Origin: Naegleria gruberi | Taxonomy: Eukaryota | Length of the DNA stretch: 64,000 nucleotides | Reading direction: 5' to 3' (one strand) | Assembly (NCBI GenBank): GCA_000004985.1 | Contig: GG738880.1 | Shown here: piece by piece, positions 2,095-28,875 of the stretch | Layout of the letters: each line of letters starts with the position of its first letter | Numbering within the stretch: position 1 is the stretch's first letter | Program-made: the position numbers and the translations under genes | Notes under the pieces: generated by a model | Database searches by the model: none | What the model was told of the DNA's origin: nothing | The model's input: the letters and a program-made list of their open reading frames with translations, nothing else

Positions 2095-5070
2095 TTACAG
2101 GGTAAGTTTGTTAATGTTATAGTCAATGCCTTGTTGCAACTTTGGTGGATTGAGTTCAAAAAGTTTCTTAATTGCAGAGGCACTTGTTCCAACTTGTTGT
2201 GGAGGGAGAGACTTCTTCGACCTTATCAAGGAATTTTCGAAAAGGTTGAAAAGTTTCAAATCACACTTGCCTTCTTGTGTTTCAAAATATTCTGGATTTC
2301 CATTCTTTACAGTTTCATAGAATTGATGGAGATCTTTCAAACTCTTAAAGATGACATCCTTCTTGGAACTTGAAGTATTAGTTGTGAAGAGAGATTGCAG
2401 TGAGGATTTGAGGCTGACCTTGAAACCATTCTCACCCTTTGATAAACTCTTGAGGCATGACTTGGTTAATGATTCTCCAAAAAATTCGGTATACTCCTTC
2501 TTCAATTCTAATACATCAATGAGGGAGGAAACGAAATGTTGTGAGTTACATGTCTTGGCATCGAAGAGTCTTGTCGAATTCCATTCACAACACATCTTGG
2601 CAAGTTTTTCAACTGTTGAGTAAACAGTGTCAATACCATAGACAGTTGCAATATCAAATGTTACAGCAGAATCTAAAAGATCTTCACTTCTCACCATTGC
2701 AAAGTCATTTCTCCATTCAATAAAGTATGGACCAACAATAACAGCAACAGAAATATCAGTTGGCATTTCAAGGGAGGAATCCTTTTGTGTGAGACTAGAA
2801 TCATAGATGGCAACCTTGACTTTGACAAATGTTGAATCTTGAGAGACCATTTGTTGTTGAGTCTTCATGGTTGTCTTCTTTGAGAGAGTCTTCTTGAAGA
2901 ACTTGGCAATGAATCTATCCTTCATGATCAAATCGAGACCAATAGTTTCAAAATATTGAGATGCAATTGGTGCCTTCAATCTCTTTAACTTTTCAATAAC
3001 GTTGGAGAGGTTGGATTTGGCTCCTTCGGTCAACTTTTCAAGTTCAGACTCTTCTACAAGTTTCATGGTTGATTCCTTATTGATAAAGTGTGTTTCTTGT
3101 ACGTGTTGTCTTTCACATTCTTGTTTGGCAGCATTAATAATTCTCAAAGCAGATCCAGAAGATAAACCCATTTGAATAAGCTTGTTCTTGCCATACTCGA
3201 ATAATTTTCTACCAGTCAACTTTTTCTTGGAGAGAAGTGAGATGATTCTATCAGAAATGAAAACGTCTCTCATCCATCTGGTCAGCTCCTTATTGTCATA
3301 GTTGAGGAAGGCACATTCTGGAATGGAAGTTTCTTGAACCTTTGAAGGTTGAGGCTTCTTGATATTCAATGAACTGAAAGCTTGAGCCAAGTCAGTTTCA
3401 TCATCGAATGGGAATCCCATACCTTCGAGTTCCTTCTTGATCAATCTCTTCAAGTATGAAACAATTCTTTCATTGAATCCTCGTCTATTGTACTTGACAG
3501 AGAGGTCCAAACAGAGTTTACCTTCAACTGATTCCAAAATACATGGTAAACCTCTCTCATTAATAACATTGCATGCTGATTCAAAGTCACCTCTGGCAAA
3601 TGCGAGATGAAGTGGGAAATTGGCAAAGAATTCAAAATCAGTATCAGAAATTGAATTGTAATGACCTTGATTACCATCTCCATTAGAACTTCCACCACTA
3701 CTACTTCCTCCGCCATTATTACCATCTCCTCCATAGGATCCATCGAAATTATTGAAAAAGTCATTTCCATAGCCATGTCCACCACCGGATCCCTGAGTAT
3801 CTAGTACAATTTGTTGAACTACAGATGGAGGTACATAGGTAAAACCAACTTCACCAGAGAAGTGTTGCATTCTTCTCTTGTGATACAGTTTGACTCTACG
3901 AGAAAGATCACCACCATTATATTTTGGAATGAGGAATGAAATAAATCCAAAATCATTTCTCAATTCAATATTGAAAGGTTCCAAAATATCGAGTGGTTTT
4001 TCACAGCCACTATCGAAAAATACTTGAATATTGCCAACACAATCCTCAGGTTTTGGTAAATTATTATAATTAAATCCAACTTGAACAAGAGTATTTTCAA
4101 TACCCATACTTGGTCTAATCCAAACAGTTTCTGGCATTGTATTTGCAATATCGTGATAGAAAATCAATGAACATATTTTGAATAGTTCTTCAGCTTTTTC
4201 TGGTGATAAATTAAACATGGAAGCGAGTTTGTTTTGAGGGATGGCATTAGAGATACTACCACCAGAGGATGGAGAAGAAGGATAACCATAATGTGATTGT
4301 TGCATTTGTTGTTGTGGTTGTTGGTGATATTGAGGTTGTTGTTGGTAGTACTGATTATTATTGTAGGAAGGAGAAATATTATCTTGCATGTATTCATTAC
4401 TGCTAGCAGAATTTGTTGGTGACATTGAATTAGATGGACTTGATTGATAACAATGTTGTGGAATGACGTAAGGAGTTGCCAAATTTGATTTCTTAAAAGA
4501 TGATGGTGAATTTGCAGTACTTTGATTATGAACAATATTAGTTGTAGTGGTAGGCACATCTTGCATAGTTGCTGCTGATTGTACCTTCTTTTGTGTCTTC
4601 TTATTGGCAAAATAGGATCTCTCGGTCAGGACGTAAATACCTGTTGTTCTCAATAGAATTGATCTCATCATTTGTTGTGTTGATGTTGATGAGGTTGTTG
4701 TTGATGATGAATTTAAACTATTAGGACTGTTGGTGAGTGATTCCTGTACTAATTCAAAGACAATTTTCAGCTTCTTATTAGCAACCTTGATTTGTCTATC
4801 TAATACAAATTCTGCCACACATTCACATGATTGTGGTGAGAAGGTGGCTACAACAACTTCCTTTTGACTTTGTTCGGCATTCTTGTAGAGAATCATGTAT
4901 CGCATGTTAGGATTTGGATTTTCGACAATGGCATTGATGAGAACTTTTTGATTTTCATACCAGGTGATTTCTTCAGAATCAACAGAAGGTGATGGTGGAT
5001 GAGCATCGACAAAACCCACACAATCTGCCTTTCTGTGGTCACAATTTGATACTTTCATAAAGCACTTCAT
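2095..5070 (-). CDS. Large (~990 aa) low-complexity protein with ankyrin-like (PLHLAFARGDFESACNV) and SAM-like (LTRWMRDVF...LFEYGKNKLIQMGLSSGSALRI) segments. It is otherwise uncharacterised
   Basis: A single long ORF. The probable start is MKCFMKVS at 5070; the 5' part of the listed ORF up to 5151 runs into AT-rich upstream sequence. It carries N/Q/S/T-rich tracts typical of dictyostelid proteins. Confidence 0.6.
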   Translation of the reverse strand: MKCFMKVSNCDHRKADCVGFVDAHPPSPSVDSEEITWYENQKVLINAIVENPNPNMRYMILYKNAEQSQKEVVVATFSPQSCECVAEFVLDRQIKVANKKLKIVFELVQESLTNSPNSLNSSSTTTSSTSTQQMMRSILLRTTGIYVLTERSYFANKKTQKKVQSAATMQDVPTTTTNIVHNQSTANSPSSFKKSNLATPYVIPQHCYQSSPSNSMSPTNSASSNEYMQDNISPSYNNNQYYQQQPQYHQQPQQQMQQSHYGYPSSPSSGGSISNAIPQNKLASMFNLSPEKAEELFKICSLIFYHDIANTMPETVWIRPSMGIENTLVQVGFNYNNLPKPEDCVGNIQVFFDSGCEKPLDILEPFNIELRNDFGFISFLIPKYNGGDLSRRVKLYHKRRMQHFSGEVGFTYVPPSVVQQIVLDTQGSGGGHGYGNDFFNNFDGSYGGDGNNGGGSSSGGSSNGDGNQGHYNSISDTDFEFFANFPLHLAFARGDFESACNVINERGLPCILESVEGKLCLDLSVKYNRRGFNERIVSYLKRLIKKELEGMGFPFDDETDLAQAFSSLNIKKPQPSKVQETSIPECAFLNYDNKELTRWMRDVFISDRIISLLSKKKLTGRKLFEYGKNKLIQMGLSSGSALRIINAAKQECERQHVQETHFINKESTMKLVEESELEKLTEGAKSNLSNVIEKLKRLKAPIASQYFETIGLDLIMKDRFIAKFFKKTLSKKTTMKTQQQMVSQDSTFVKVKVAIYDSSLTQKDSSLEMPTDISVAVIVGPYFIEWRNDFAMVRSEDLLDSAVTFDIATVYGIDTVYSTVEKLAKMCCEWNSTRLFDAKTCNSQHFVSSLIDVLELKKEYTEFFGESLTKSCLKSLSKGENGFKVSLKSSLQSLFTTNTSSSKKDVIFKSLKDLHQFYETVKNGNPEYFETQEGKCDLKLFNLFENSLIRSKKSLPPQQVGTSASAIKKLFELNPPKLQQGIDYNINKLTL

Positions 5071-5796
5071 GATGATGATGATGGTAATAGGAAGAAAATA
5101 ATAAAGATAAGGATATAGGAGAGAGAGGATGATGAATTGGTACCGAGGCAAGGCAGGTTATATAATTTAAAAAGGATCACTCAATATAAGTATATTATAC
5201 CTAGGTTGTGGATAGAGGTGATCTCTTCAAATTCTTTGTTGTTGGAGTGTGGTGTTGTTGGTTGGACACAGACTTCAAATCTTGTCTTTTTTTTATAATG
5301 TTGTGATGGATTAAATTATTGCTTCGGAACTGAAACACAAACATGTTAATGAAAGAAACTGAAGGAGAAGAGCGTACCTGAAAGCCAACAAGTCTTCCAA
5401 AAATATTGGTTGACTGAAGAGTGGCTTCAGTAAACTATCAGTTGCAACGAGTAGTAGAATTAGTTGTTGATGAGGTTTAACTTTGACTTGGATGATGAAG
5501 AAGAATGAACTGAGGTTGAATTAATTTTACGTCAAATAGTGAAAATGAATTAATATGAACTGTAAGTATAGGATAATTTAAGTGAACTGTAATGAATTAT
5601 CTACAAAGTTGTTTATTGTAGTTTGATATTTAATTATATACTCAAAGAATACACAATTCTATTCTGACTCATTTATTACCCAACCACATCTTTCTTTTTA
5701 ATACTTGTTCAGCATTATCTTAATACCCTCTAAAGAACAAGTCAAGTTTTGCCCGCCAAAATTGTAGTTTTCTAAAATACAACAATTAAAAAAAAA

Positions 5797-7716
5797 ATGT
5801 CTTCTCATCCTCAATCAGAATCTTCATCAACAAGGATTGAAGAAGAACATTGTGACAATTTAAAGATGGAGGAGTTGGATGTCGCTGTTTTAAAAAAGGT
5901 TAATTCAGTTGAGGAAGTTGTAGGGTGGAAACAAATCTCATCGGAGGATGTAATCTTGAGAAGAATTCTCAGTTTTTGTAGTTTCCAAGAACAATCATCA
6001 ATGGAACTTGTCAACAAACAATGGAGGAAGTGTGTCAATGTTGAGGGGTTTGTATTGGAAAATAATAAGAAGAATATTGAAAAATTCGATTCGGAATTAT
6101 TTCCAAAACTCTTAGCAAGACATGGCTCAAACCTGAAATCGTTCAAAGTCACAGCTTCTTACTGGGAACAAAAGAATACAAAATTGATAACACCCCAAAT
6201 ACTTGTGCAGCTGTCTAAATATTGCCCAGATCTTGAGGAGCTTCATATTCCAATGTGTCACAATCTTACAGAATCTGATATCAATCCATTGAGAGGACTG
6301 ACCAAGTTGAACAAACTTGAGAAATTGGATTTGAGTGGATGTAACCTCACTGATGATCATTTGAAGAGTCTGACTGGTCTGAGAAATATCAGGGAACTAA
6401 ACTTGAGCATAAATCGATATGTGTCAGACTTGGGAATCAAGTATCTTTTCCAAGCTTCTGATAGTCTTATTGGAAGTAAGATTGAAGCTTTGGATTTGAG
6501 TTTTACTTCAGTCTCTGACAATTCTCTTCTCTGCCTTAGATCTTTGACCAACCTTAAACAATTGCACTTGATGCAGTCCTCCATTTCTCCGAAATGTCTT
6601 TCCCAACTTTTAACCTCCGAGGGTGGCCCAACAATTGAGAAATTGAATCTCCTCAATTGCACCAACATTACCTCCTTGAACTTTTTAAAAAATTATTGTA
6701 AATTACGAGCACTTATGGTTTCCTTTTCTCAAAAGGACCAAAGATCAATCAATGATGATATTGACTTTATTGAAAAACAAACTTCCCTGAAAGAATTAGT
6801 TCTAGTTGAGGTAAATTTACTAAACTCTCCACTATTGGAAGCTATTTCAAAACTGTCACAACTTGATACACTCAGTTTGAGATGTAAGAGAATTGAACTC
6901 AAGAGCAAGCAACTTCCAGACCTCCTTTCCAAATTGACAAACCTCAAAAAACTTGATATTTTATGCGAACAAGTGGATCCTATTGAAGAAGGAATTTTGG
7001 ATATCATTTCTCGTATTCCTGAATTAGAAGCTGTTTCAGTACAGTGCCACAGAAGGGCAAAGGCCATTAACTTGTTAGATGAAATTTTAGGCAAGCTATC
7101 TCTCTCAAAAATGGGCCACGCCCTTAAACACTTCTCAGTTCAAGTTCCTGGATATACTCTTGGCGAGTCTGGTTTCAGATTCCTCTCCAAATGTTCAAAT
7201 CTCGAAGCATTGGATGCTCCAATAGGCGATAATATTAGAGTTTCTGCAGAGACTCGTTTCAACAATCTTAAATCACTTCAAATTCAACAAGTTACGCCTT
7301 CCAAAGCAATCTCTCAGTCAACATTCGATTCTCTTATCAAAAGTACCAATGGAAAGCTAGAAAAATTAGTAGTCAAATCTGGAAAAGGCCTTTTATCAAT
7401 CATTGATAGTCTTGCCATCAGTTCCCAACAATTGCAAGACTTGGAGCTAGATCTCGAGATTATGAATGGCAAGGATAATTTATGTTGCAGTCTCGATGCT
7501 TCCTTGACCTCTTTAACAAAAATGTTAAATCTTGCCAGACTTTCCCTCACAGGGTGTGACAAGTATTGGTCTATTAACAAGTCAATTGTACCTTTGGCTA
7601 GAAATTTGAATTACCTTACTGAGTTGGCCCTTCCATCAGCAAAGATTTCCTCCTCTTCACCTCTTCTTTTCGAACGTCTCTTCCCCCAAACCACCATCCA
7701 ACAATCCTCTCAATAA
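5797..7716 (+). CDS. F-box/LRR-repeat protein (FBXL-type)
   Basis: An A-run precedes the ATG. The F-box reads ILRRILSFCSFQEQSSMELVNKQWRKCV, followed by about 15 cysteine-containing LRRs (LEELHIPMCHNLTESD..., LDLSGCNLTDDHL...). Confidence 0.8.
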   Translation: MSSHPQSESSSTRIEEEHCDNLKMEELDVAVLKKVNSVEEVVGWKQISSEDVILRRILSFCSFQEQSSMELVNKQWRKCVNVEGFVLENNKKNIEKFDSELFPKLLARHGSNLKSFKVTASYWEQKNTKLITPQILVQLSKYCPDLEELHIPMCHNLTESDINPLRGLTKLNKLEKLDLSGCNLTDDHLKSLTGLRNIRELNLSINRYVSDLGIKYLFQASDSLIGSKIEALDLSFTSVSDNSLLCLRSLTNLKQLHLMQSSISPKCLSQLLTSEGGPTIEKLNLLNCTNITSLNFLKNYCKLRALMVSFSQKDQRSINDDIDFIEKQTSLKELVLVEVNLLNSPLLEAISKLSQLDTLSLRCKRIELKSKQLPDLLSKLTNLKKLDILCEQVDPIEEGILDIISRIPELEAVSVQCHRRAKAINLLDEILGKLSLSKMGHALKHFSVQVPGYTLGESGFRFLSKCSNLEALDAPIGDNIRVSAETRFNNLKSLQIQQVTPSKAISQSTFDSLIKSTNGKLEKLVVKSGKGLLSIIDSLAISSQQLQDLELDLEIMNGKDNLCCSLDASLTSLTKMLNLARLSLTGCDKYWSINKSIVPLARNLNYLTELALPSAKISSSSPLLFERLFPQTTIQQSSQ

Positions 7717-7744: not shown

Positions 7745-10700
7745 TTATTCTTGAATTCGGGTCGAATCCCATCTCTTCAAGAATAGGACGTTAAGCTTTG
7801 ATGCATTGAGATTGTACTTCTTCATGACATTGACTCTAACCTTATCAAATACAAATTGATTTGTAATATCAAAGAAGGATCTATCATATGATTCTGGATC
7901 AATGACAAATACTCTACGGTCTCCATAAAAGTGTGAATTGGCATCTACCAAATCTTGGAACCAAGGAGATTTATCAGCATGTAAACAACTGTAAACTGGC
8001 TCTGAACTAGTCTTGAATTGGAAGTCACACAAGATATGTTCTCCATTGTGGTGAGCATAACCGAACACCACCAATAATACATAGTCTTTGAAAATAGATC
8101 TGGCAGCAAAGCAAAATTGGAACATTGAGTCATCTTGTTTCACCTTGGTGGCTTCATCCAATTGTTGAATTTCACAAAAATGTAAACCTGACATTAATTG
8201 TGAAATGAATTCCTTAGCTTTGACAATTGTTGATTTGTTCTTACCAGTTCCTTCAATCTTTGGAATAGCCATTTTAAGGTGGAAAGAAGACTCGAAATTT
8301 TCCCACAATGTCAAAAAGTTTTCATGAAGTAAATTAATTGGCTTTGTGAGAACGTGAGCCATTTTGATCTTGAATGGTTGGCATCTAATTGTTACAAGTC
8401 CTTCTTGCTTGTTGCCTTCATCCAAAAGATCAATGGTTCCTGAGGACTTGAGATGTGTACATTGTATAATAATATTAAAACAATAGTGTCCAAGTTCTGA
8501 CATTGTAAATTCCAAATCAAATTCATAGGATTGATTTACAGACAAGTCACCAATATTACTTGATGCTTGTTGAGTCTTTTCAAAGAGAGTAAGTGGACCT
8601 TCGAGGCCAACTTCGGCTGTTGTTTTGAAAATATCACATGGTGAATTATTATGTACCTTAACGTGGAGGAATACAGTATATGAGTCAGGCATAACAGAGT
8701 AGGAAGCTGTTACACAGATAGGATCACTTGGTTGGGAGATAATTACAGAGTGGAACTTGGATTCAATGTTAGTTTGTCTAATCTTTGTATTGGCTGAGGT
8801 GGCTGTCAAGAGTTGTTTACCCTTCTTGAGTTGGTAGAGATCTTGTTCGTGCAAATTTGAAATAATAGAGTTGAGTTGTTGAATGCCTTCAATGTAGGAG
8901 GTGAGAATTCTTTCATCTTCTTCCGAGTAGTATGACTTGAAGATTGGGTGATCCTTGTTAAATACCTTACCATAAATAAGTTCAATATCTGACTTGGAAG
9001 CATTATCTCTTGTTATATTGTACTTCATAGCATAATCAACTTTCAATAAAGTTTTTCTGATCAAATCGGCAATATCATCCCTAGTATCGAGTTGTTTCTC
9101 CATCAACATTTTCAAATATTCAAAAGTATCTCTAAGTTTTGGAGTAAATCTCAAACAAACACTGAGTAAACAATAGAGGAGAGTTTCAATCTTTTCCTTA
9201 CTGGACATTCCACCAGAGTTTTTAAGAGTTGAAGAAATCATAAATCTGGTATGGTCAAATACCAAATCACCACTTTCTCTTCCAGCAGCTTGTTTTTGTA
9301 ATTCAACATAATTACTAAGAATACACATGGACATGACTTCAGCAAATTCAGTCTTCATCTTGAGAATGATATCCAAACACTTGTTCAAAATCTTTTGAAT
9401 CTTCTTTCTTTGATCTTCATTTGTATTGAATGATGTGTAGGATTCTCCACACAAATCTGTCAAAACGAGGGCGAACTCTGAAATACTTGCAATTAACCCA
9501 TTAGAGTCTTTCCACGTGAGAGAATTCATTGCAAATTCACAAATGCCAATTCCAACATCCAACCAAGCATGAATGAGTGAATAATCAATGGCAGAGTCTG
9601 TATTCTTTTCAACATTATTGTCATTCTTTGGTGTAAATGGCTTTTGAGTCAAGTATTCACGACACAAACAGAAGAGAAGTTCATTTCTGATTTGTTCTTC
9701 AAATTGTGATTCTGGAACAGTTACAATCTTGGAAATGAACCCTTCTCTCAAGAAGAGGTCAATTTCAACAGGTTCATTCAATTGATCTAAAAGTTTGAGG
9801 AAGTGTTGTTTTGTTCTTGTGTTAATACTGCATTGAATAAGAGTTCTGACTACACTTGATAATATGTACATTCTATTTACGTTGTCACTAACTTTCAAAA
9901 TATGTTCCACAAGTTTCACACAAACAGTATACTTATCACGAACAGTATTTAAAACTGAACAAATATCTTTCATAAGATCATCATAGAAGAAGGATGATTC
10001 TTCTCTGTATAAAAGTCCAAGATAGGCATTTGTTGCATCATCAATTAAATTATTAGTACAAGCTGTCAAATCGCTTGTCATTGAACTATCCATAGCAGTT
10101 AATAAGATACAGTGTGCTGTTTCCAAAACTGTGGCACATTCAACACTTTGAAGCATTGGTCTCAAAACATTTGTTACACTAATCATGACTATTTTCACAA
10201 TAATAATTATAATTACACTATTGTCAAAACCTACCATTATCAAAGGATGAATTGGAACGATCCAATAATTGTTGATGTGAATATTCGTCTTGTAAATATA
10301 ATGAAATGAAAGTAATTGGTCTCAAGGCAGGGTATCTTCTTCTCACATCCATACACTTGAGTCTTGACAAGAGGATGGTAAAATGTGGCTTCATTGCAGC
10401 AATCCATTGCATACTTTCCTTGGTGACAGAAATTGGCAAAGATTCCGCATGAAGATGACGAGCACAATCTCCACAAATAAATTCTCTCAACTAAATTCCA
10501 CACACACCCAATATTATTATCATCATCATCACAACAATATAATAAACCTACCACTTCAAATCCAACAAATGCAATTTCTTGATTATCATCTTTAATAGAT
10601 TTAATCACCCAATCAGAGAAATACTTTGCTGTTGATGATTCACTTGTATTTTGTTGGAAAGCTGTTGATCGTAAAGTCTCGGATTGTCTCAACGAAATTG

Positions 10701-11412
10701 CCAAACACTTTAAAAAGTGAAGAGCAGCAATTCTAACATGATCATATCCATACTTGAAAAGACATTCCTATTTATCATTATATGATGATGAAGATTATTT
10801 TGTATTATTATTATAATAATTAATATATTATCAAAACACGAATATTCCAAGTATTGTTTGTTTAACATTGTTATTATATTCACATCATCCGTATGATCCA
10901 AAAGATGTGTTATTTGATGATGATGAATAATTTGATGAGTTGTTAGAGTGATAGATGATGAATTAATTATCAAATTTAAAAGATGATCAAAGTACGCTCT
11001 CCAATCAATCTGCACATATAAATTAACTACATACTTCTATTTGTCTACGATTCTTTACGAAAAACTCTTGAAGTTGAGTGCTAATACCACACAAACCAAC
11101 CACTGTTCTAAAAGCCCAGACACACAAATCAGGATTTGCTGATGAATTGGTCATATCATCAACTACAACTTTCATAACAAAATTCCAATCGTGTCTACTC
11201 GTTATGGCACATCCTTTAATTAACTGATAACAAAGTTTCTTCACCAATGGATCGGATGTCTTGACCAAAACAGCATTAATCACAGTAGATACATAATTTT
11301 GTATATCCTTTCCGGCTGTATAGAGACGATGAAGAATCAGCAGGGCATTGGTCTGTTTTGTTGGATCGGAGGAACTTAACTCTGCAGCAATACTAATATT
11401 CTCCAATTCCAT
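7745..11412 (-). CDS. ARM/HEAT-repeat protein, possibly an adaptin or trafficking-complex subunit; multi-exon, ~1150 aa
   Basis: Proposed model is join(7745..10188, 10235..10490, 10552..10767, 11035..11412) on the minus strand. The introns are 46, 61 and 267 nt with GTAGGT/GTATGT donors and TAG acceptors, and the frames stay open across each junction. The N-terminus MELENISIAAELSSSDPTKQTNALLILHRLY is helical-repeat-like. The C-terminal ~450 aa looks like a beta-sandwich. Family assignment is weak. Confidence 0.5.
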
Positions 11413-11787: not shown

Positions 11788-14172
11788 TTAAACTGAAGAT
11801 AAATGTTGGAAAGCAAATAAGGCAAATGATTGGAAAACCAGAACAAACAATAAAGAAACAACCAAACATTGGAAAATTCTCATAGAACACAAATAATAAG
11901 TTGAGGATTCTTCAGAACAATCTTCATCGTGGTAATCTTGATCGTGTCTTTCATCGTGCTTGGAATTGGATGCGGCTAGGTCAGTATCATGGTTGGATGG
12001 AATGATAATTGGTTGAGAATGATCATCGTGGAGGTTATGGTGGTGTTCATGTTGTTGATTCTTTTTTGGTTTCGTATAGTAAATGCATTCGTCTTCGTTT
12101 AAAATTTCTTCGTCGTCTGCGTCAGATTCTTCAGATTCTGAAGTGAATTCGTAATTAATTACTTCACATGGACTCTTCTCTTCTTCTTTCAAATGTTGAA
12201 TAACTTCTTTCGGATTTGAAACTTTATCTGAAATCAATTCTTGTTTTGGCGGGAATTTCACAATGGAAAGTTTGGATGGTCCACTAGCTCTGAAAGGAGG
12301 ATTGACTATTTCTTTTGGTTGTTCTGGTGGAAATTGGAGAGGTGGAATGAAAACAGAATTGCAGATTATTTCATCACGATGCTTTGGAATCATCATCTTG
12401 GTTTCTGTTTCAGGTTTCTTTTCGAATATAATCTTGTCACTTTCTTTCTTATCTTCTAGATGAATCATTGGTTCATCCTCAGTTGCAACTTGTTGTTGCT
12501 CATCTGCACTTCCATCAGGACCAATAACTATCCAATGAATCACCTTATGAAGAATCAACCAATAGTAAAGCAAATTCATTGCAGTTGACTTGATGAAATT
12601 TTCAATTGGAGACAAACCACAGTGATTCATCTTGTACTTATCAATAAAATCTCTCTTCTTATTGAATTGAAGAAGTAATTGACGAAGTACGAGCATACTT
12701 TCCTTATGAAGATCATTTCTAATTAATTCAAAGTCTTCAATTCCTTCTTTGGATTTTCCTGACATTCCAATGGTGAGAATATCGAATGATCTCATCTTGA
12801 GATGCTTGGCCAATTCTCTCTTTTTATCAAGAATATTTCTGTCATTGCCAACTAAATCAGTTTTTGTGGCCACTACCAAATATGGAATTCCTTTCGAATC
12901 TAAATAGTGTTGAATTGATTTGGTAATTTGCAATTCTTTTTCATTAAATTCAATTGGAATGGTTAGCATTACCAAATCATGGCACATCACTTGTTGAATC
13001 CTGCCACCTGCCTTAATATTCTCGAATCCATACTCAACCATCTTGTCGCTCATTTCACTTGCAAACATTCCAACATATAATTGTGAAAGTAATTTACAAT
13101 AATTTGGACATTGGTCTTGAGAATCAATTCCTGGCATGTCTGTAAAGATAATTCTTTGAGTAGTGATTTGATCTGAAATGTCAGAATCTATTGGTTGAAA
13201 CATGACAGAACATCTGGAGATGTTTTCATCCCATTTGTAATAGGAAAGTTGGGATTCGTCTTGTGTGACTTGGTGGGTTCTGGTACCATGATCTAAATTT
13301 CTATAAATTGGTCTGAAAACAAGTTTAGGATATGATTCAGAGTTTGGAAGAATTCGTTCACTTTCGAATTCCATAACTGAGGAAAGCAAGGACTTGAGTT
13401 GTGATTTTCCACTTGATGAGCAACCAGCCATGATAACATTCAAAGAAGGAAGTTCTTCACTCATCAATTGTTCCATTTTCCTATTATGGATGTTCAATTC
13501 ACAATTGACTTGCTTTCGTAAAGTTTCCAATGATGGCAAATGATTCATTCTTACATTATTCTTCATTTTAGGATTCAACAATCTAGGAGATGATCTTTCT
13601 GAACGAGGAGTCATTTCACAATCTGAACTAAATGAGGAATAAGCCATTTCGAATAGAGATTGTTTTGGAATTTGGACTTCTAAAGGAGATCTCTCAATTT
13701 CTTGAGTACATTCAGATGAGGAAGTTGAAATCTCAGAAACACATGAATCTAACCTTTCCAATTTGAGATTAGTTTGGAAAGATGACGAATCTTTCAAATC
13801 TTCCTCAGGAATAATTAATTGTTGTGAATTAAACAATAAAGGATCTTCTGAGGAGTATGAATCAGAATCTAGATTGAATAGTAAATTATTACAATAAACT
13901 GGATACTGGTTGAAACCAACATCACTTGTGCTGTTGAGTGGCATGTAACCTAATCCGAAACAAGTATTCGAATCACGAAGAGAATTACTCAATCTTTGAC
14001 TTGTGGAGAAGGTTTCTTCAATAGTGGTGGTGTTACTAATTTGAATTGGAGAGGCAATTCGTTGGAAATTCTTATTCGAATTTGATGATGGTTGTTCGAA
14101 AGTAGAAGAATTCAAACTTTGTTTAGCTTGCTCTTCATGAAAGTAATCTGAAACAATGATTTTATCTTTCAT
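11788..14172 (-). CDS. Tail-anchored P-loop GTPase (paraseptin / IRG / AIG1-like) with an S-rich N-terminal region, an acidic linker and a C-terminal TM helix
   Basis: G1 is MAGCSSSGKSQLKS, G3 is FTDMPGID, and G4 is VVATKTDLVG (a T-K-x-D variant). The C-terminal hydrophobic segment is QCLVVSLLFVLVFQSFALFAF. Confidence 0.65.
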   Translation of the reverse strand: MKDKIIVSDYFHEEQAKQSLNSSTFEQPSSNSNKNFQRIASPIQISNTTTIEETFSTSQRLSNSLRDSNTCFGLGYMPLNSTSDVGFNQYPVYCNNLLFNLDSDSYSSEDPLLFNSQQLIIPEEDLKDSSSFQTNLKLERLDSCVSEISTSSSECTQEIERSPLEVQIPKQSLFEMAYSSFSSDCEMTPRSERSSPRLLNPKMKNNVRMNHLPSLETLRKQVNCELNIHNRKMEQLMSEELPSLNVIMAGCSSSGKSQLKSLLSSVMEFESERILPNSESYPKLVFRPIYRNLDHGTRTHQVTQDESQLSYYKWDENISRCSVMFQPIDSDISDQITTQRIIFTDMPGIDSQDQCPNYCKLLSQLYVGMFASEMSDKMVEYGFENIKAGGRIQQVMCHDLVMLTIPIEFNEKELQITKSIQHYLDSKGIPYLVVATKTDLVGNDRNILDKKRELAKHLKMRSFDILTIGMSGKSKEGIEDFELIRNDLHKESMLVLRQLLLQFNKKRDFIDKYKMNHCGLSPIENFIKSTAMNLLYYWLILHKVIHWIVIGPDGSADEQQQVATEDEPMIHLEDKKESDKIIFEKKPETETKMMIPKHRDEIICNSVFIPPLQFPPEQPKEIVNPPFRASGPSKLSIVKFPPKQELISDKVSNPKEVIQHLKEEEKSPCEVINYEFTSESEESDADDEEILNEDECIYYTKPKKNQQHEHHHNLHDDHSQPIIIPSNHDTDLAASNSKHDERHDQDYHDEDCSEESSTYYLCSMRIFQCLVVSLLFVLVFQSFALFAFQHLSSV

Positions 14173-14384: not shown

Positions 14385-14630
14385 CTACTTTCTGATAATC
14401 ACATAAATTAGAACGAAAGGAGCAAACACAATCACTATTGGAAAACATAAAATTCCCAAACTCACTCCAATAATCCAAATTGCAACTGTCTTTCCAATTT
14501 CATTATTCGAATGTTGCCGATTTGCAACAGGTGCAGATGATGTCGAAGGTGAAACTAAAAAATTCGATAAATCACCACTACTCTGATTATTCTGATTCTT
14601 TGCATTCATCATCGAGGCCTCTGTCACCAT
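14385..14630 (-). CDS. Small (81 aa) single-pass membrane protein
   Basis: An A-run precedes the ATG. An N/S-rich N-terminus is followed by the hydrophobic helix IWIIGVSLGILCFPIVIVFAPFVLIYVII and then RK-stop. Confidence 0.4.
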   Translation of the reverse strand: MVTEASMMNAKNQNNQSSGDLSNFLVSPSTSSAPVANRQHSNNEIGKTVAIWIIGVSLGILCFPIVIVFAPFVLIYVIIRK

Positions 14631-14814
14631 TTTTTTATTTGTGAGATCTTACTTCTGACATTTTGACAGCATGTGTGGTCGAGTTCATGGTGGGAATTGG
14701 GCTTTTAGAAAATTGTAATATTTTTGGAGGAAACTTGCAAATTGGGAATTATTGTAAATCCACAGTGTTCTAATTTAGTAAATTAAATTGTTAACAACAA
14801 TTGAAAGTTTCAAC

Positions 14815-16191
14815 TCAGAAATTAGCTATCATTTCGATATCATCACTAATAGCATTACCACCAATATCTAGCTTAGTTAATTGAGTCATTGTGTTAATGT
14901 ATTTAGCTCCTTCATCACTAAGATTATTGTAAGTAATTGAGAGATGAGTGAGTTGATTCAGTTGACTAACATATTTGGCACCTTCGTCGGTAATGTTATT
15001 GCGACCAATATCAAGTTTTCTTAAATTCTTCAATTCACTTATATGTTTGGCACCTTCATCTTCAATGTTGTTGTAAAAAATATCCAAACTAGTTAATTGT
15101 TTCATTTCACTAATAAATTTGGCTCCTATTGATCCAAGACGATTGTAACCAATGTTCAGATTGGTCAGTTGGTTCATTGTTTTTAAATGTCGAGCTCCTT
15201 CTTCACCAATTTTAGCACCACCTATACTAAGATCGGTTAATTGTTTCATTTCAGTAATGTATCTGGCTCCATTAGGACCTATTCCATTTGCTCCAATACA
15301 TAGAATAGTTAATTGTTTCAACTCGCTTACAAATTTGGCACCATTTTCATCAAGCCTGTTGCCTTCAATAAAGAGATAGGTCAGTTTTTTCATTTGGCTT
15401 AAATATTGGGATCCTAGGTTTCCTAGATTATTGTAACCAATATCCAGATGAGTCAATCCTTCCATCTCACTAATGTGACGAGCTCCTTTATCACCAATAC
15501 GATTGCCATGGATGTTAAGATTAGTCAATTGTTTCATTTGACTAATATATTCAGCTCCAGGTTCTCCAATATTATTATTGCCAATATTCATGCAAGTTAA
15601 TTGGCTCATTTGACTAATATATTTGGCTCCTTCGTCCATAATCTTATTGTTACGAATATTAAAATTGGTCAAATGTTTCAATTCACTAAAACATTTAACT
15701 CCTTCATTACCAATCTTATTGTCCTCAACATTAAGATTAGTTAATTGTTTCAATTGAGGAATGCACTTGGCACCTTCATTACGAATCTTACTACGTATAG
15801 TAAGATTATTCAACGATCCCATAAACTCCAATACATGGCAATCAAATGTATTGAAATATTGGTTCACGTTAAGACTTTGAATATTTTGTAAAAATCGTCC
15901 TCCCAATGTCAATTCATTTTCACATTTCAATGAAAGAAATTTACATCTTTCCAACACGACATTCAACCACTGTTTCGAAACCAATGCACAACTCATCACT
16001 ATAAATCTAAAATCATCCCGAAGAAAAGATAAAATTTCATACAATACATCATCGGGCAATATTTCTTTATCAGAATTTAATTTTTTAAATTTTCTTTCTG
16101 ATTGGAAATTGCTAATTATTAATTGATCGTCGGCTACATGCGATTGATCATTGTGATCATCTTGAAAGACTTTTCTATTTCGTTTGCTCAT
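14815..16191 (-). CDS. F-box protein with 13 ribonuclease-inhibitor-type (NLR-like) 24-aa LRRs
   Basis: The F-box reads LPDDVLYEILSFLRDDFRFIVMSCALVSKQWLNVVL. Tandem units follow of the form LTxLNIxxNxIGxEGAKYISxMKQ. Confidence 0.8.
   Translation of the reverse strand: MSKRNRKVFQDDHNDQSHVADDQLIISNFQSERKFKKLNSDKEILPDDVLYEILSFLRDDFRFIVMSCALVSKQWLNVVLERCKFLSLKCENELTLGGRFLQNIQSLNVNQYFNTFDCHVLEFMGSLNNLTIRSKIRNEGAKCIPQLKQLTNLNVEDNKIGNEGVKCFSELKHLTNFNIRNNKIMDEGAKYISQMSQLTCMNIGNNNIGEPGAEYISQMKQLTNLNIHGNRIGDKGARHISEMEGLTHLDIGYNNLGNLGSQYLSQMKKLTYLFIEGNRLDENGAKFVSELKQLTILCIGANGIGPNGARYITEMKQLTDLSIGGAKIGEEGARHLKTMNQLTNLNIGYNRLGSIGAKFISEMKQLTSLDIFYNNIEDEGAKHISELKNLRKLDIGRNNITDEGAKYVSQLNQLTHLSITYNNLSDEGAKYINTMTQLTKLDIGGNAISDDIEMIANF
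14830..15775 (-). repeat. About 13 tandem 72-bp coding repeats (the RNI-type LRR array) within the F-box gene
   Basis: The periodic protein repeat is visible in the translation, and nucleotide periodicity is visible by eye. Confidence 0.6.
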
Positions 16192-18780: not shown

Positions 18781-21700
18781 ATGCCATCCAAGAAGAAGAA
18801 GCAGCCAAAAACGCCTTCTTCCTCCTCTTCAGAAGATGAAGATCATCTCCAACACAACAACAACAACACTTCACCGCTTCCCTATGTTTCTTCTTGGTTA
18901 CCTCCTTCATTGTTGCATTCTCCGTCATCACCAACGACAAATTCATCATCACCGACTACGATTTACGCGCCAACAACGTCTCAAGGTGTTGTAGGAAAAT
19001 CAAACTCTAAGAATAAGAAGAAGAATAATCGGAATGATGATGCTGATGAGAATCATGATGGAAGAAATATTAATATTAATAATTTGAATAATTTGAATAG
19101 TAATAATAACGTTGATAATAATGATGAGAAAACACTCTCTGATATGGACGATGAGTGGAATCACATCATTGAACAATATCACTCCCTCATCAGGAATAAG
19201 CAAAATAATGAACATGAGGCTAATCATGATTTATTCAATATTATTGAAGGAAATTCGGCCACACCAAATTATGGAAGTTATGATGATCAATATAATTTAC
19301 CTTCATATGCTGATAGGAGAAAATCAATGCTCGTCTTTCCAACATCAACCATCCTCTCTTCATCACCAAATAACAACAATAATAATAATAATAAGGAGAA
19401 TGATAAGAAGAAGAAGAGAAAGTTTGCATCACTGAGGAGGAAGAATAGAAATCAACAAAATTTACCAAGTGATGAAGAAACAGAACAACAACTCCATCAT
19501 CATCACTATAATGAAACAGTGCAGCCAACAGATCCTGACTTTCCAACATTGTCCTTCTGTGATTTAATGTTAATTGGAGCTGCCACTCAACAACATCCGC
19601 ATGGATTATTGACAAGTGCCACAACAGCAACAACAACAACAACTTCTGGAAGTGTTAGCACGACTCAATCTCCTTCATTGCCGATGGGAATGAGAAATAA
19701 CATTGGAAGTAATTTGCTGGGTTATTACGATCATCATCATCATGCATTATCTTCTTCTCCAATGCTTGGTGGTTCTCCTTCTCTCTCTTCACCAAATGTG
19801 ATTGGAAAAGGTAATGGAGATTTTGGTGGTGGATTTTCACAAGTTGACAAGTCGTTGAATCTAATGCTATTTCCAAATACAGCATCCACAACTCCACTAT
19901 CACCTTCATTTCCAACAAGTACTGCGCTCAGCACTAAACCACTTTCATTGGATTTATCAAAATTAAAAGCAAAATCAGCAGCTAGTCAGGCAGCTAGTTG
20001 TCAAACACCTGAAGTTTCGGATAAGAAGAAGATTTTTAAACGAAGAGAAAGGTCTGCATCATCATTTTCATTAGGAGGCAGTAAACAACATCCAGATAGT
20101 CCAAGTCAGAGACATCACCGATTGAATAATTCAGATTCAAATTCAAATTCAAGATTACAACAAGGAATGTCATTCACAAAGTGGTCGGAACTCATTCAAA
20201 ACAATGGTGCATTTGCGAGAATTAATAACATTTCGCCCTCTTCACCTGCTCTGGGACAGAATGATGAAGATTCACAGAGTAATGGAAATGCAAATGATAT
20301 TCTTTCACATGATAGTACGGAAATTTTCGATCAGTTGGAGGATATTCTTTCCTATCAGCTGCCAATCAGCCCTAGGTATAGAACCTATTCTAAATCATCG
20401 AATACAAGGAGGGATACCTCCGAGACACTCAATGATGAAGAGCAACAACAACAGCAGCAGTCACAACAACATGATGAAACACGAACGAGTGAGGATATTA
20501 TTGGAGATGAGGAAGAGGATGAAATGGACGATCTCATAGATGGAGCCATTAGTAATTTCAATCGAGCCACTGACAGTAGCACTGAACAAGGAGATAAATC
20601 CTCTTCAAATAATCCTGTGGATTTACAATTTGCATTGATTGGAAGTCGTGGAAAGATGGCCGATTGGGTCAAAGAAAAGGAGAAGGAAAAGGAGACTCTT
20701 CCACAAAATTTGCCATCTCTTAGGGAGGGAAGATCTCCACAAGAGACTAGAAAGGGAGACCCCTCACGACAACACATTTCAAAAACTAGATTTTCATTCA
20801 CTTCACGCTCTGCAGTTAATTTGAATTCTGTTAACAATAATCAAAAATCACTTATTGAAGATATCGATTCTGAAAAATCGACATCATTTACTGAGGGAAA
20901 TTCTCCTCAATTTAGACCAAAGGGAAGAAAGAGAAGTTTAAGCCATATGATGGTTAATGCAAGTGTTTGCTTGCATTTTGCAATTGACAAGTAAGTAATT
21001 TGTTATACTTTCATTTTTTAACATTTCTAATTATTATAATACTTTCGTGTTTTTTATAATATAGTTTTAAGGGAATTGATGAATTTATCAAGGAAGAACA
21101 AGAGAAGGTCAATCTTAGAAATGAAAATAATTCAACCACTGATGATCAATCATTCTGTGTCCAGTTACATGTCTTGCACAGAGTCAAGAAATCTAACAAT
21201 ACCTATGCATGGATTTCACTCATTCACACTCAAAATGTAAACCTCCTCGATTTGGAATCATTCAACTCATCAGACAAGAGTAAAATCACATCTGATGTTG
21301 TCCATTTCGAAACTAGTGCTACCTTACCATTCAATTTTGAAAAGATTACACCACTCCTCTTTGCACTCATCAGTACACGAACAAATCAAGTGCTAGGTTC
21401 CTATGAGGGTTGTTTGGCAGAGATTTGTGGAAGTCAGCAGCTAATGATACGAAGAAAACTCATCAAGCAAAAGAAACACTTTTGTGATTTGGTAGTCAAG
21501 GCATCCATACCACCAGGAAATGAGAAACGACTCTCAGTTTTGGAAAATCTTGGAAATACCGTAAGGGAGCAACTCTCGCTGGCTCCACCTCTCGATTTAT
21601 TCAATGATATTCCCACAACAGAGTCTCCTCTCATTTCAGATTCGAGCTCTTCAGTAACTCCTGATATGAATAATGATGGTTCACTCCTGAGAAAGAAATT

Positions 21701-24138
21701 AAGAGTCGAAAGAAAGAGAAAGAAATCAACAAAAATTGAGGAAATTTATTTGGATTTTGATGAAATACAAGCCAAATTGGAAAAGAAGTACAAGGATTCT
21801 TTCCTTGTAGTGAGTCAACAATTCTACACTGATAAGAATCAATTGGGATCTTTCATTCCGCTCTACACTAGTGAAACTAATACCAAACTCACAAAAACAC
21901 CCTCCTTTGAACCATTTTCTATCAAACCTACTTTAGAATTCACCAATATCACCTTCAGATTCGAACTGTTTTATTGGGTATCAATCGACAAGCAACAATA
22001 TGACGATTTGGATGTAATGTCACCACGACAATACAAACAATCACCAATTGACGCAAAAAAATCATCAAACACCAGAACAACCACCATAGGTCACTACAGA
22101 AGATTAATTGGAGCAACAGAAGTTACCTATACTGATTTTATCAAATTCTTTGATTTACCCTCTGTTCCAACACCTGAATCGACAAGTTCTTCCTCCACTA
22201 GTAAACCTCTCAAAGGGGATAATGATCTATTGTTGGGACCATTCTTCCACATTTCTAGCTCTGGACTCACCGAAGCTACCAATAGCACAACCACACCAAG
22301 GAAAACAAGAAAATCCCTGAAAAATGTTACATTTGAATCAGAGGAAAAGTCCAACAATTCGAATAGTGGACCCCCAACGAATAGAGTTTCTCCTCTTACA
22401 ATGAAATTACTAGTCGATCGTAGAATTCACATTATCAAAGAGGAAACACTTGCTCCACAAGGAATGGATCCAGTAGAAGATGAAAATAATCCATCAGTTG
22501 TTCACAGAAGAAGAAAGGTTCTCACTGTAGTAAATGTTCAGAGTGGATCTCTCACATTCAAGAGTGTCAAGGAGAGAAAGGTCTTTATTGAAGAACAATC
22601 GGATTTGGATGTGACCTATACATTCCTTGATTATATGAAAACTGGATTGAGATTTAAATGTTACTTTGCTCTCGATTTTACCAAAGATAATACGTAAGTT
22701 TCATTTAACTTTTTAAATCTTTACAATTTAGTGAGCCGAGAAATGAAGGAAATTTACACATTGCTCCAAAAGGACAAAAATCCATCTATGAACAATGTAT
22801 TGACAGCATCAGTAAGAGAATATTCCAATATGATCCAAATATGACCGATTTCCACTTGGTTGGATTTGGAAATGATACACAGGAACCAGTTTTCAATTTG
22901 TACAGTAAGGGAGACGACCTTCTCGAGGAGGAAACTTCATCTTCTTCCATGTATTTTAGAGATGACAATGCCTCTGCAAGCTCTGAGGATAAGTCACAAA
23001 ATTACATTTACTCTGTATTATATCCAAGATATTATCCTCCTTTGAAAATTCATCAACTTTCACCAGTAAGTTTTTCACAAATTTTAAAATTTTACAATTA
23101 ACACTTGTAAAATTCTTGTAATAATTTGGAATTTAATAGATTTATCGACAATATATTTCGAGCACGGGTGGAAATTTCAAGCTCACCATGCAAGATTGTG
23201 TCAAAACTCGTCATTATGCCTTCACAGAGACAAACGTTCACAAGGGCACCAGAGATTTGACAAATGCCAATAGATTTAGCTATGATGATGGTTTGAAACA
23301 TGAGAAATTGAAACGAATGTCCTCTCCAGAATTTATTCACCTCAATTATATTGATTCTCCAAAGGTAACAACCTCTTCACTTACCCACCAAGGCAACAGT
23401 TTCTCAAGCAAATCACCAATAGTTGGCTCTTCCTCTATGGAAAGTGAAAAGAAATCAGCAAGCAAATCGAGTCTTTTCAAAAATAACATTTTCGAATCAC
23501 AAAAAGTAACCTCCAAATATGCTCCAAATGATTATTATCCAGTAATTTCTGATGTTATTGATTTGAGTTGTAATTTGAAGAATGAGGAAAGTATTGCCCA
23601 AACTCTTCTCTATCTCTACAGAGAACAGCAAATGTCAAAGATGGGTCATAGAAATTCAACCTCTTCCACACTCTCCTCTGATAGTTCTACCATGATGAAT
23701 ATTACACCAGTTCTGTACAATATTTTGGTAATCTTGATACCGAATGACTTTATTCATGTTGAGGAGACAATTTACAAATTTGTGGAGGCTTCACATAAGG
23801 CTGCTCTCTCAATTATTGTCATTGGAGTTGGAAGTGGATGTGGATTCAAAACTCACAGATCTATCAATACGAACACTGATTATGTTAGTAATAATTCTAC
23901 CTCTGGATCTGGAGGAAGAACTCTCCAATACAGAATTCAAACCATCATTCCAACAACAACTGATTTACAATATAGAGGATTGAGAGCTGCTCGTGGTTGT
24001 GTAACATTTGTAAGATTGAACGATCATGAAACTGTAAATGAGGCAGTGGAAGCAGCTTTGCAACACATTCCAAAACAAGTTTGTCGCTACATGAAGATGA
24101 AAGGTAGAGAAATATTATCATCCGGAAATAATCAATAA
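18781..24138 (+). CDS. Copine-like vWA-domain protein with a ~740-aa N/S/Q-rich N-terminal extension; 4 exons
   Basis: Proposed model is join(18781..20990, 21065..22693, 22732..23065, 23140..24138). GTAAGT donors sit at 20991, 22694 and 23066 with TAG acceptors, and the phases are consistent. Exon 2 is open from 21060 but has no in-frame ATG for ~380 nt, so it is internal. Copine-like motifs are YFALDFTKDNT (MIDAS-like), FHLVGFGNDT and ALSIIVIGVGSG. Confidence 0.6.
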
Positions 24139-28110: not shown

Positions 28111-28875
28111 ATGCATCATCAATTTGATACTACAACAGAACATTCTCAACCAATTGTTCCATTGGATAATGACAATTCAATCGATCTCAAAAACAAGCAG
28201 ATCATTGATGAAGAAAAGGATGAAGCTTCTACAGCTCCAATGTGTAAAGAATTGAAGGAATTTACTCAAGAATTGGAAGATTGTTTTAAAGAAGGAGAAG
28301 GAAAAGTCAACCCGGAACATGTCAAACAAATCTTCAGAAAATATCTTGATAAGATTGACTTGAGTGATTTGGAAGCCTATTGTTTGGCTGATACAAGAGC
28401 TACCTATACTAGAAATTTAATATTTAAAAATCCATACTTTTCATTGATTGTTCTCGCATGGAATCCACAACAACACAGCTCTATTCACAGTCATGCTGGA
28501 TCGCAATGTTGGTTCAGATGTATGAGAGGACAAGTCAAGGAATGCAGATGGATGATTGACCCAACTCATGACCAATCACTCTGTCCTTCAGAACCAACAA
28601 AGGAATTTATTGCCAATGTTAATTCTATTGGTTATATTGATGATAACAATGGTGTTCACTGCATTGTGAATACACGAGATGAAATTAGTGTCACTCTCCA
28701 CTGTTATGCTCCTCCATATGATTCATGTGCATGCTACTCTGAAGAAACAGGTGAAGTCTATAGAGGAAAAGTAATGTTTGACAGTATTGGAGGTGTTATT
28801 GATACATCACATCCTTCAAAGGAATCAGTTGTAAGTAGTACAATTTCCAAAATTGAAAAATTTCTAATTATGTAA
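28111..28875 (+). CDS. Cysteine dioxygenase type I (cupin)
   Basis: LIVLAWNPQQHSSIHSHAGSQCWFRCMRGQVKE matches the CDO core [33 protein letters not shown], including the metal-binding His residues. Confidence 0.8.
   Translation: MHHQFDTTTEHSQPIVPLDNDNSIDLKNKQIIDEEKDEASTAPMCKELKEFTQELEDCFKEGEGKVNPEHVKQIFRKYLDKIDLSDLEAYCLADTRATYTRNLIFKNPYFSLIVLAWNPQQHSSIHSHAGSQCWFRCMRGQVKECRWMIDPTHDQSLCPSEPTKEFIANVNSIGYIDDNNGVHCIVNTRDEISVTLHCYAPPYDSCACYSEETGEVYRGKVMFDSIGGVIDTSHPSKESVVSSTISKIEKFLIM

Follow-up and report, generated by a model that had tools for sequence, protein, structure and literature searches.

A probable tail-anchored GTP-binding protein of an orphan family in Naegleria gruberi and its distant likeness to Acanthamoeba and IFI44-like G domains

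Introduction

Among described proteins, the nearest detectable relative of the gene product considered here appears to be the G domain of IFI44 and IFI44L. IFI44 is an interferon-induced antiviral gene; human IFI44 and IFI44L carry a GXXXXGKS motif and a DxxG motif followed by Leu, and deletion of G1 from human IFI44 did not do away with the antiviral activity (bioRxiv 10.1101/2020.02.24.963900). The gene in question, NAEGRDRAFT_69806 of Naegleria gruberi, lies in a 64,000-nucleotide stretch of contig GG738880.1 (assembly GCA_000004985.1), the whole of which is called the window below. A previous, sequence-only reading of this stretch had taken its source to be a dictyostelid; N. gruberi is a heterolobosean within Discoba, and that assumption is therefore wrong.

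The protein is probably a tail-anchored GTP-binding switch of an orphan family. Its divergent TRAFAC G domain would be nearest to Acanthamoeba and IFI44-like proteins, within the septin/EngB-like region of the class and in no named family.

Results

NAEGRDRAFT_69806 is a complete single-exon coding sequence, comprising one uninterrupted open reading frame (ORF) of 794 residues plus stop at 11788..14172 on the minus strand, on which all features of the protein given below are also encoded. The translation of the ORF matches the NCBI model, XP_002675145.1 (UniProt D2VLJ8), with 100% identity over 100% of the length; NCBI labels the Naegleria gruberi entry "predicted protein." As the gene has a single exon, the hydrophobic stretch at the C-terminus cannot sit in an unspliced intron. 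No paralog was found within the window. In a text search covering part of the literature, no paper naming the locus tags or accessions was found, nor were expression or localization data.

The G domain spans residues 244–500 (12673..13443) and contains the motifs of a P-loop GTPase. The G1 motif, or P-loop, is GCSSSGKS (residues 250–257, 13402..13425), embedded in the family block AGCxxSGKSQLKSL. G3 is DMPG (residues 345–348, 13129..13140), with Ile as the next residue, and G4 is TKTD (residues 436–439, 12856..12867), preceded by the invariant Pro-Tyr of IPYLVVAT. The positions of all three were checked by translation. Ordered motifs of the type G1…DxxG…[NT]KxD with GTPase-like spacing did not arise once when the protein was shuffled 20,000 times, and the residues that define G1, G3, and G4 are invariant in the alignment of five full-length homologs. 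The position directly after DxxG is hydrophobic (Ile, Leu, or Val) in every member, reading DMPG-I or DLPG-L/V. There is accordingly no Ras-type catalytic Gln, and all members share the hydrophobic replacement at this position by which "HAS-GTPases" are recognized. In the N. gruberi protein, 94 residues separate G3 from G4. The segment RSFDILTIGM (residues 461–470, 12763..12792) forms β6 and the loop at the G5 position, with Arg461, Phe463, and ILTIGM invariant in the family. A candidate switch I/G2 region is DHGTRT (residues 294–299, 13276..13293).

The core was modeled by AlphaFold as a Rossmann-like P-loop fold in two models, one from a five-sequence alignment (predicted local distance difference test score, pLDDT, 63.9; predicted template modeling score, pTM, 0.66) and one from a 10-sequence alignment (pLDDT 65.8, pTM 0.67). 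The domain runs in the order β1, P-loop, α1, a variable switch I insert, β2/3, G3, α2 with extra helices, β4, α3, β5, G4, α4, β6, and α5. An intact and conserved GTPase-type nucleotide site is present within this GTPase fold.

The only transmembrane (TM) helix of the N. gruberi protein, RIFQCLVVSLLFVLVFQSFALFAF, occupies residues 765–788 (11809..11880) and is followed by six residues. Its best 19-residue window averages 2.54 on the Kyte–Doolittle (KD) scale, and no other segment exceeds the value of 1.5 above which a TM helix was called. With one TM helix no more than ~30 residues from the C-terminus (765–788 of 794) and no hydrophobic segment at the N-terminus, the protein has the hallmarks of a tail-anchored protein. 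An equivalent helix is found in all five homologs, and Arg765, Gln768, Val771, Leu775, and Gln781 are invariant. In other species, a strongly basic cluster (KKKRKFHRLEKR, KKKR) stands before the helix (C-termini of P0002–P0005), whereas the N. gruberi protein is acidic there (HDEDCSEESS) and has six extra residues after the helix.

The G domain and anchor are joined by an acidic linker (residues 551–758, 11899..12522) containing 24% Asp and Glu, 9% Pro, and 6% His, with an isoelectric point of 4.65; neither its sequence nor its length is conserved between family members. At the other end, residues 1–236 (13465..14172) are rich in Ser, Thr, Asn, and Gln (38%), match no domain, and are hardly conserved between species. 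The G motifs (GxxxxGKS, DxPG, and T-K-x-D), the long acidic linker, and the single C-terminal anchor had all been named in the sequence-only reading and are borne out here, the motifs at positions verified by translation. Motifs, models, structural matches, and the TM helix support its broader picture: a GTPase of TRAFAC fold whose G domain, probably cytosolic, is connected through the long acidic stretch to a membrane anchor at the C-terminus.

Immediately after the last G-domain helix lies an aromatic hydrophobic segment, TAMNLLYYWLILHKVIHWIVI (residues 530–550, 12523..12585), with a KD value of 1.33, below the TM threshold. Its equivalents are rich in Trp and Cys in the orthologs, form a Trp-rich helix in the Acanthamoeba proteins described below, and are short and polar in Willaertia. 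Examples are MGWIEWFVFWLCLWVVG in the N. fowleri-type protein and LFCLCNVIRCFCDF in P0002. This segment may be a helix lying in the plane of the membrane, a region of S-acylation or, in certain species, another TM helix that makes a second pass.

A large protein search returned only four other members of the family: C9374_006575 of N. lovaniensis, ABK040_002980 of Willaertia magna, one environmental sequence, and one N. fowleri-type Logan sequence that shares a 90% cluster with N. fowleri FDP41_006886. Overall identity among the homologs is 26–31%. Invariant blocks in the alignment of five are AGCxxSGKSQLKSL, F-x-D-x-P-G, LTIP, P-Y, T-K-x-D, R-x-F-x-ILTIGM, and E-G-x-x-D-x-E, while the N-terminal region and the linker cannot be aligned. 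The reading frame is undisrupted in each species in which the family was found. Invariance of G1, G3, and G4 and of core and anchor residues, beside flanks that vary freely, points to purifying selection on the nucleotide-binding site and to selection on the anchor. On present sequences, this appears to be a small orphan family confined to Naegleria, Willaertia, and a few environmental sequences.

Named GTPase families were searched for by several routes. Searched against Pfam, the N. gruberi protein matched no model at E<=1, whether Septin, IIGP, AIG1, Dynamin_N, or any other, and the four homologs matched nothing relevant and none of these four models. A phmmer search of the PDB with the N. 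gruberi protein found no match. When the family profile was run against all PDB sequences, no septin, IRG, GIMAP, Toc34, or dynamin chain appeared at E<=10 other than the best match of all, OPA1 (E 0.073), which, like the next, EngB (E 0.19), is not significant. Against single sequences, hhalign gave the family profile a probability of 2% for septin-2 and 4% for dynamin-1. Matches to NCBIfam were sub-threshold but mutually consistent, covering β4, G4, and G5 (small_GTP, E 6.8e-4; YsxC, E 1.2e-3; Era; EngA). YsxC was the commonest family match, in three of the five members at E 1e-3, with 18.6 bits against a cut-off of 124 bits.

Candidate memberships were rejected on these grounds. For septins, there was neither a PF00735 match nor a PDB septin, and hhalign against the septin reference stood at the 2% given above; in addition, G4 is TKxD in all members and not of the AKAD type, and where septins have their unique element, the G domain is followed by one helix, the hydrophobic segment, and a low-complexity linker. 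For IRG proteins (PF05049, IIGP), no IIGP match and no IRG chain were found, and for AIG1/GIMAP and Toc34/159 proteins, no PF04548 match and no PDB GIMAP or Toc match. The dynamin superfamily was rejected with no PF00350 match, a non-significant OPA1 match, and no stalk or bundle after the G domain.

Relatives beyond the family were sought by an HMMER profile search run exhaustively on 1.84 billion (1.84e9) representative proteins. It returned seven matches at E<=1e-3, namely the five family members and, from outside the family, P0007 (E 2e-4) and P0008 (E 3.9e-4). P0007 is 99% identical over the aligned part to ACA1_031580 of Acanthamoeba castellanii, and its full-length relative P0016 (330 residues) contains GPSKAGKT, DLKG, and TKVD; its G domain is followed by a Trp-rich helix, and its chain ends in a TM helix. 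P0016 has the architecture of the Naegleria protein minus the long flanks. P0008 falls among bivalve proteins annotated as "interferon-induced protein 44-like"; TLDc and tandem G domains occur in some.

Both links were recovered in reciprocal hidden Markov model (HMM) searches scaled to equal database size. The Naegleria profile matched IFI44-like P0009 (43 bits, E 2e-6) and Acanthamoeba P0014 (41 bits); in the opposite direction, the IFI44-like and Acanthamoeba profiles matched Willaertia P0005 with 38 bits (E 8e-5) and 40 bits (E 2e-5), respectively. Profile alignment by hhalign gave 98.1% for Naegleria against IFI44-like (E 1e-13), with 203 columns aligned between G1 and a point past G4, and 97% for Naegleria against Acanthamoeba. 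A single multiple alignment is coherent across the three groups; in it, a Gly ~20 residues past G3 and a Pro ahead of G4 are invariant. Every member of all three carries TKxD and has a hydrophobic residue directly behind DxxG. G3 and G4 stand unusually far apart, by 90–104 residues in the Naegleria family, by 95 in Acanthamoeba, and by 94–96 in the IFI44-like domains measured, except for the second domain of P0011, where the spacing is 76. Searched against the PDB, the IFI44-like profile and the combined one align with septins along most of the domain (Septin-3, E 2e-4; Septin-9, E 3.5e-5).

These comparisons support the Acanthamoeba tail-anchored GTPases and the IFI44/IFI44-like G domain as the nearest detectable, if distant, G-domain relatives of the Naegleria family. 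Homology to the IFI44-like G domain is marginal but reciprocal. The architecture differs: PF07534 is missing from the Naegleria protein, which has a C-terminal TM helix in place of the N-terminal TLDc and soluble nature of IFI44-like proteins, and it is therefore a relative of the IFI44-like G domain and not a member of that group by architecture. Among the papers ranked by a literature search, none linked IFI44 to amoebae.

Several observations concern the relatives themselves. Acanthamoeba has a small family of ~330-residue tail-anchored GTPases (P0015–P0018; ACA1_031580, ACA1_386090, and Logan relatives; loci L004–L006). Its NCBI models look truncated or mis-spliced, P0015 having a different, TM-less C-terminus and P0017 being a 154-residue fragment; P0016 is transcript-derived and complete. 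In the bivalve IFI44-like proteins (P0008–P0013), two tandem G domains lie downstream of TLDc. P0009 gives a weak PADLOC match to the model of the bacterial dynamin-like defense GTPase LeoBC (E 4.6e-8), while PADLOC found nothing for the Naegleria or Acanthamoeba proteins.

Upstream of NAEGRDRAFT_69806 are two ORFs on the same strand: a bare ORF of 81 residues with a TM segment and no family match (14385–14630), and an ORF of 458 residues (14815–16191) with leucine-rich repeats (LRRs) of the ribonuclease inhibitor type (LRR_6, E 1e-41). F-box matches of the latter fall just below the Pfam gathering scores (22.3 vs. 24.3 bits). Neither ORF was present in the protein collection by exact look-up. 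An ATG that looks in-frame and a GTAAG lie just upstream of the 81-residue ORF (14385–14660, minus strand); from these letters, the ORF, if a gene, may have an extra short exon in its true model. The sequence-only reading had seen a small TM protein gene and an F-box protein with such repeats here, hinting at a defense neighborhood; of this description, the repeats stand, the F-box is sub-threshold, and the TM gene is a bare ORF.

The neighborhood itself is not shared. On the N. lovaniensis and N. fowleri-type contigs, the neighbors of the orthologs are a gene for a cathepsin-type peptidase and other, unrelated genes; those of the Willaertia homolog are SWIB and Spec3 genes. With the LRR and small TM neighbors absent from these three loci and no PADLOC match, a defense neighborhood is not upheld. 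A second LRR protein gene in the window (5797–7716, plus strand) indicates that such genes are simply common in the region. The two genes upstream of the N. lovaniensis ortholog have homologs in the window at 42241–42882 and 48164–51083 (both minus strand), and this shared order and strand supports orthology at the level of macro-synteny. They lie 4–10 kilobases (kb) upstream in N. lovaniensis (L001, 1–5743) and 28–37 kb upstream in N. gruberi, where the LRR and small TM neighbors sit inside a ~28-kb interval whose N. lovaniensis counterpart is ~4 kb. Directly upstream of the N. lovaniensis GTPase gene is a DDE_Tnp_4 transposase gene.

Elsewhere in the window, a copine-like protein (23188–24138) and a type I cysteine dioxygenase (28111–28875) are encoded on the plus strand. 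Four large ORFs (2095–5151, 18781–20994, 21174–22697, and 25150–27573) gave no Pfam match. The downstream neighbor (7745–11412, minus strand) is apparently multi-exon. It contains an ORF of 129 residues with a weak match to Adaptin_N (E 3.5e-5, below cut-off) and further ORFs, among them one of 832 residues without a Pfam match, and may be a divergent large subunit of an adaptor complex.

Discussion

That the protein is a tail-anchored GTP-binding switch of an orphan family is, in our judgment, the likelier reading of these data, and several points count against it. In the candidate switch I region, Asp294 and Arg298 are invariant and neither Thr is, each being replaced by Asn in one or another member; model confidence is low there, across the switch I insert, and in part of the insert between G3 and β4. 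Structural matches single out no family, falling in equal measure on EngB, EF-Tu, IF2, Arl, septin, GIMAP, and mitofusin. The E-values of P0007 and P0008 are marginal in the unbiased search. Probabilities from hhalign are not family-specific: the Naegleria profile reaches 92–95% with single bacterial EngB and IF2 sequences, over only 57–80 columns around G4, and the IFI44-like profile reaches 97% with EngB. For Ras, EF-Tu, septin-2, and dynamin-1, the control was one sequence each and not a profile. What speaks specifically for the links is therefore how P0007 and P0008 ranked in the exhaustive search, together with alignment length and the shared spacing and architecture. Finally, the segment after the G domain has a KD value of 1.59 in the N. 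fowleri-type ortholog P0003, leaving room for a two-pass topology in that protein.

The lack of specificity of hhalign, where values above 90% arise among many GTPase families, also feeds the alternative that the protein is a generic, highly divergent Era/EngB-type GTPase that gained its TM anchor independently, its likeness to Acanthamoeba and IFI44 proteins being TRAFAC background and convergence. YsxC is the commonest NCBIfam match, EngB is among the best PDB matches, and a metagenome-derived bacterial EngB has DLPGYG and IPYIVVATKVD in common with the family. This explanation is nevertheless unlikely. EngB and Era are very large families, yet at E<=1e-3 the exhaustive search reached only P0007 and P0008 outside the family and no protein of EngB/Era type. 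The EngB and IF2 matches extend over 57–80 columns around G4, compared with 120–203 for the Acanthamoeba and IFI44-like proteins, and the long G3–G4 region is that of the latter two groups and not that of EngB (~70 residues in the metagenome sequence) or Ras (62 by our own count). The tail-anchor architecture is, moreover, common to the Acanthamoeba proteins.

A paraseptin or IRG protein, or a GIMAP/Toc34-like one, acting in cell-autonomous defense within a defense gene neighborhood, was the proposal of the sequence-only reading, and we consider it improbable. DxPG, TKxD, and the C-terminal anchor do resemble GIMAP and Toc34, septins are matched by the IFI44-like relatives, IFI44 is interferon-induced and antiviral, and an LRR gene lies upstream. 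None of the corresponding Pfam families is found in any of the five members, however, none appears in the PDB profile search, and the structural matches are unspecific. The T-K-x-D form of G4, which had been taken as a mark of IRG and septin-like GTPases, is not diagnostic of either, since bacterial EngB (TKVD) and IF2 (TKID) carry it too. These two were the only kinds of gene found in a scan of metagenome contigs, where they share IPY(I/L)VVATK with the family and serve as controls, not relatives. What remains of the septin-like placement is its broad sense, a position in the septin/EngB-like part of TRAFAC, in keeping with the septin matches of the IFI44-like profile; membership in septins is not supported. 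The defense component likewise loses its neighborhood argument to the three other loci, and no expression data were found in the literature search to set beside it, so that the link to innate immunity survives only through the distant IFI44-like relationship. A scan of viral contigs with the family alignment found no viral relative, which leaves a giant-virus link without support.

Less probable again is a dynamin/mitofusin-like membrane-remodeling GTPase held in the membrane by both the post-G segment and the C-terminal helix, with a luminal acidic linker between them. DLPG and TKxD are also the G3 and G4 motifs of dynamins, OPA1 is the top PDB sequence match, Mitofusin, Fzo1, BDLP, and IniA are among the structural matches, and the KD value of P0003 would suit a second membrane segment. 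Against this, the OPA1 match is not significant, Dynamin_N is missing, the hhalign probability for dynamin-1 is 4%, one helix and a low-complexity linker take the place of a helical bundle or stalk, and the post-G segment of N. gruberi stays under the TM threshold, its Willaertia counterpart being short and polar. A further alternative, a pseudo-GTPase or a decaying gene of this lineage without nucleotide-dependent function, for which very fast divergence between species, the variable G2 threonine, and the dispensability of G1 in human IFI44 might be cited, is highly improbable given intact ORFs in every species found and invariant functional G1, G3, and G4 and many core residues in Naegleria and Willaertia while the flanks vary.

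If the protein is a tail-anchored switch, its G domain would be tethered to the single C-terminal TM helix through ~200 acidic, probably disordered residues acting as a flexible tether, with the low-complexity N-terminal region ahead. By the rules for tail-anchored proteins, it would be inserted post-translationally into an endomembrane with the G domain towards the cytosol. The endoplasmic reticulum (ER) or an ER-derived membrane is the likeliest target, because the TM domain is very hydrophobic and the luminal tail, of 0–6 residues, has no net positive charge. Guanine nucleotide would be bound with specificity conferred by the Asp of T-K-x-D. Lacking a Ras-type catalytic Gln, the protein would need nucleotide-dependent dimerization of its G domain, or a partner, for GTP hydrolysis, as in septins, GIMAPs, and Toc34. 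The polar residues Arg765, Gln768, and Gln781 in the TM helix and the aromatic, Cys-rich segment after the G domain may serve self-association, membrane apposition, or lying on the membrane. This mechanism is inferred as a whole.

A more far-reaching proposal, which we regard as doubtful, would unite the Naegleria family with the tail-anchored GTPases of Acanthamoeba and the animal IFI44/IFI44L G domain in one ancient, pre-animal eukaryotic lineage that is membrane-anchored in free-living amoebae from two supergroups not related to each other. On this view, a pre-metazoan, membrane-bound protein would be the ancestor or cousin of an interferon effector's G domain, and the amoeba proteins might serve cell-autonomous defense against intracellular bacteria or giant viruses. 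The protein is a clear GTPase recognized by no curated family model. If the distant links hold, the tail-anchored GTPases of Naegleria and Acanthamoeba, which represent unrelated groups of free-living amoebae, the former being the genus of the pathogen N. fowleri, make up a small clade tied to the G domain of the interferon-induced antiviral factor IFI44/IFI44L, and amoebae could be simple systems in which to study this type of G domain. If they fail, interest in the protein would be local, to the cell biology of Naegleria, as a further membrane GTPase restricted to its lineage.

Among the systems compared, the Acanthamoeba proteins (ACA1_031580, ACA1_386090, and relatives; P0007, P0014–P0018) share with the Naegleria protein GxxxxGK[ST], the hydrophobic residue after DxxG, TKVD, a G3–G4 spacing of 95, the Trp-rich helix past the G domain, and one TM helix at the extreme C-terminus, and are recovered by reciprocal HMM matches of 38–41 bits and an hhalign probability of 97%. 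In contrast to the Naegleria protein, they are ~330 residues long without the long N-terminal region or acidic linker, have DLKG at G3 instead of DxPG, are ~21% identical to it, and belong to Amoebozoa and not Discoba. They are equally uncharacterized and so provide no functional information. IFI44 and IFI44L, represented here by bivalve proteins, have GxxxxGK[ST], the hydrophobic residue after DxxG, TKxD, the conserved Gly past G3, and the Pro before G4. They differ in being soluble, in having an N-terminal TLDc in some cases (PF07534 is recorded for P0009 and P0011) and, in bivalves, tandem G domains; the Naegleria protein is membrane-anchored, has no TLDc, and is ~17–20% identical to them.

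Septins (PF00735) share the TRAFAC fold and a long G3–G4 region with the Naegleria protein, and are linked to it indirectly through the IFI44-like profiles. There is no direct sequence or profile match, and no septin match reaches past the G domain. Septins are not known to be TM-anchored, and the G4 of septin-2 is AKAD where the Naegleria protein has TKxD. With GIMAP/AIG1 and Toc34, the common topology noted in the sequence-only reading is a likeness of architecture and not of demonstrated descent; neither PF04548 nor any PDB sequence of either is matched. EngB (YihA/YsxC) proteins, which are soluble, ~200 residues long, more closely spaced between G3 and G4, and matched only around G4 (57 columns), share with the Naegleria protein the local identity DLPG…IPY(I/L)VVATK(V/T)D.

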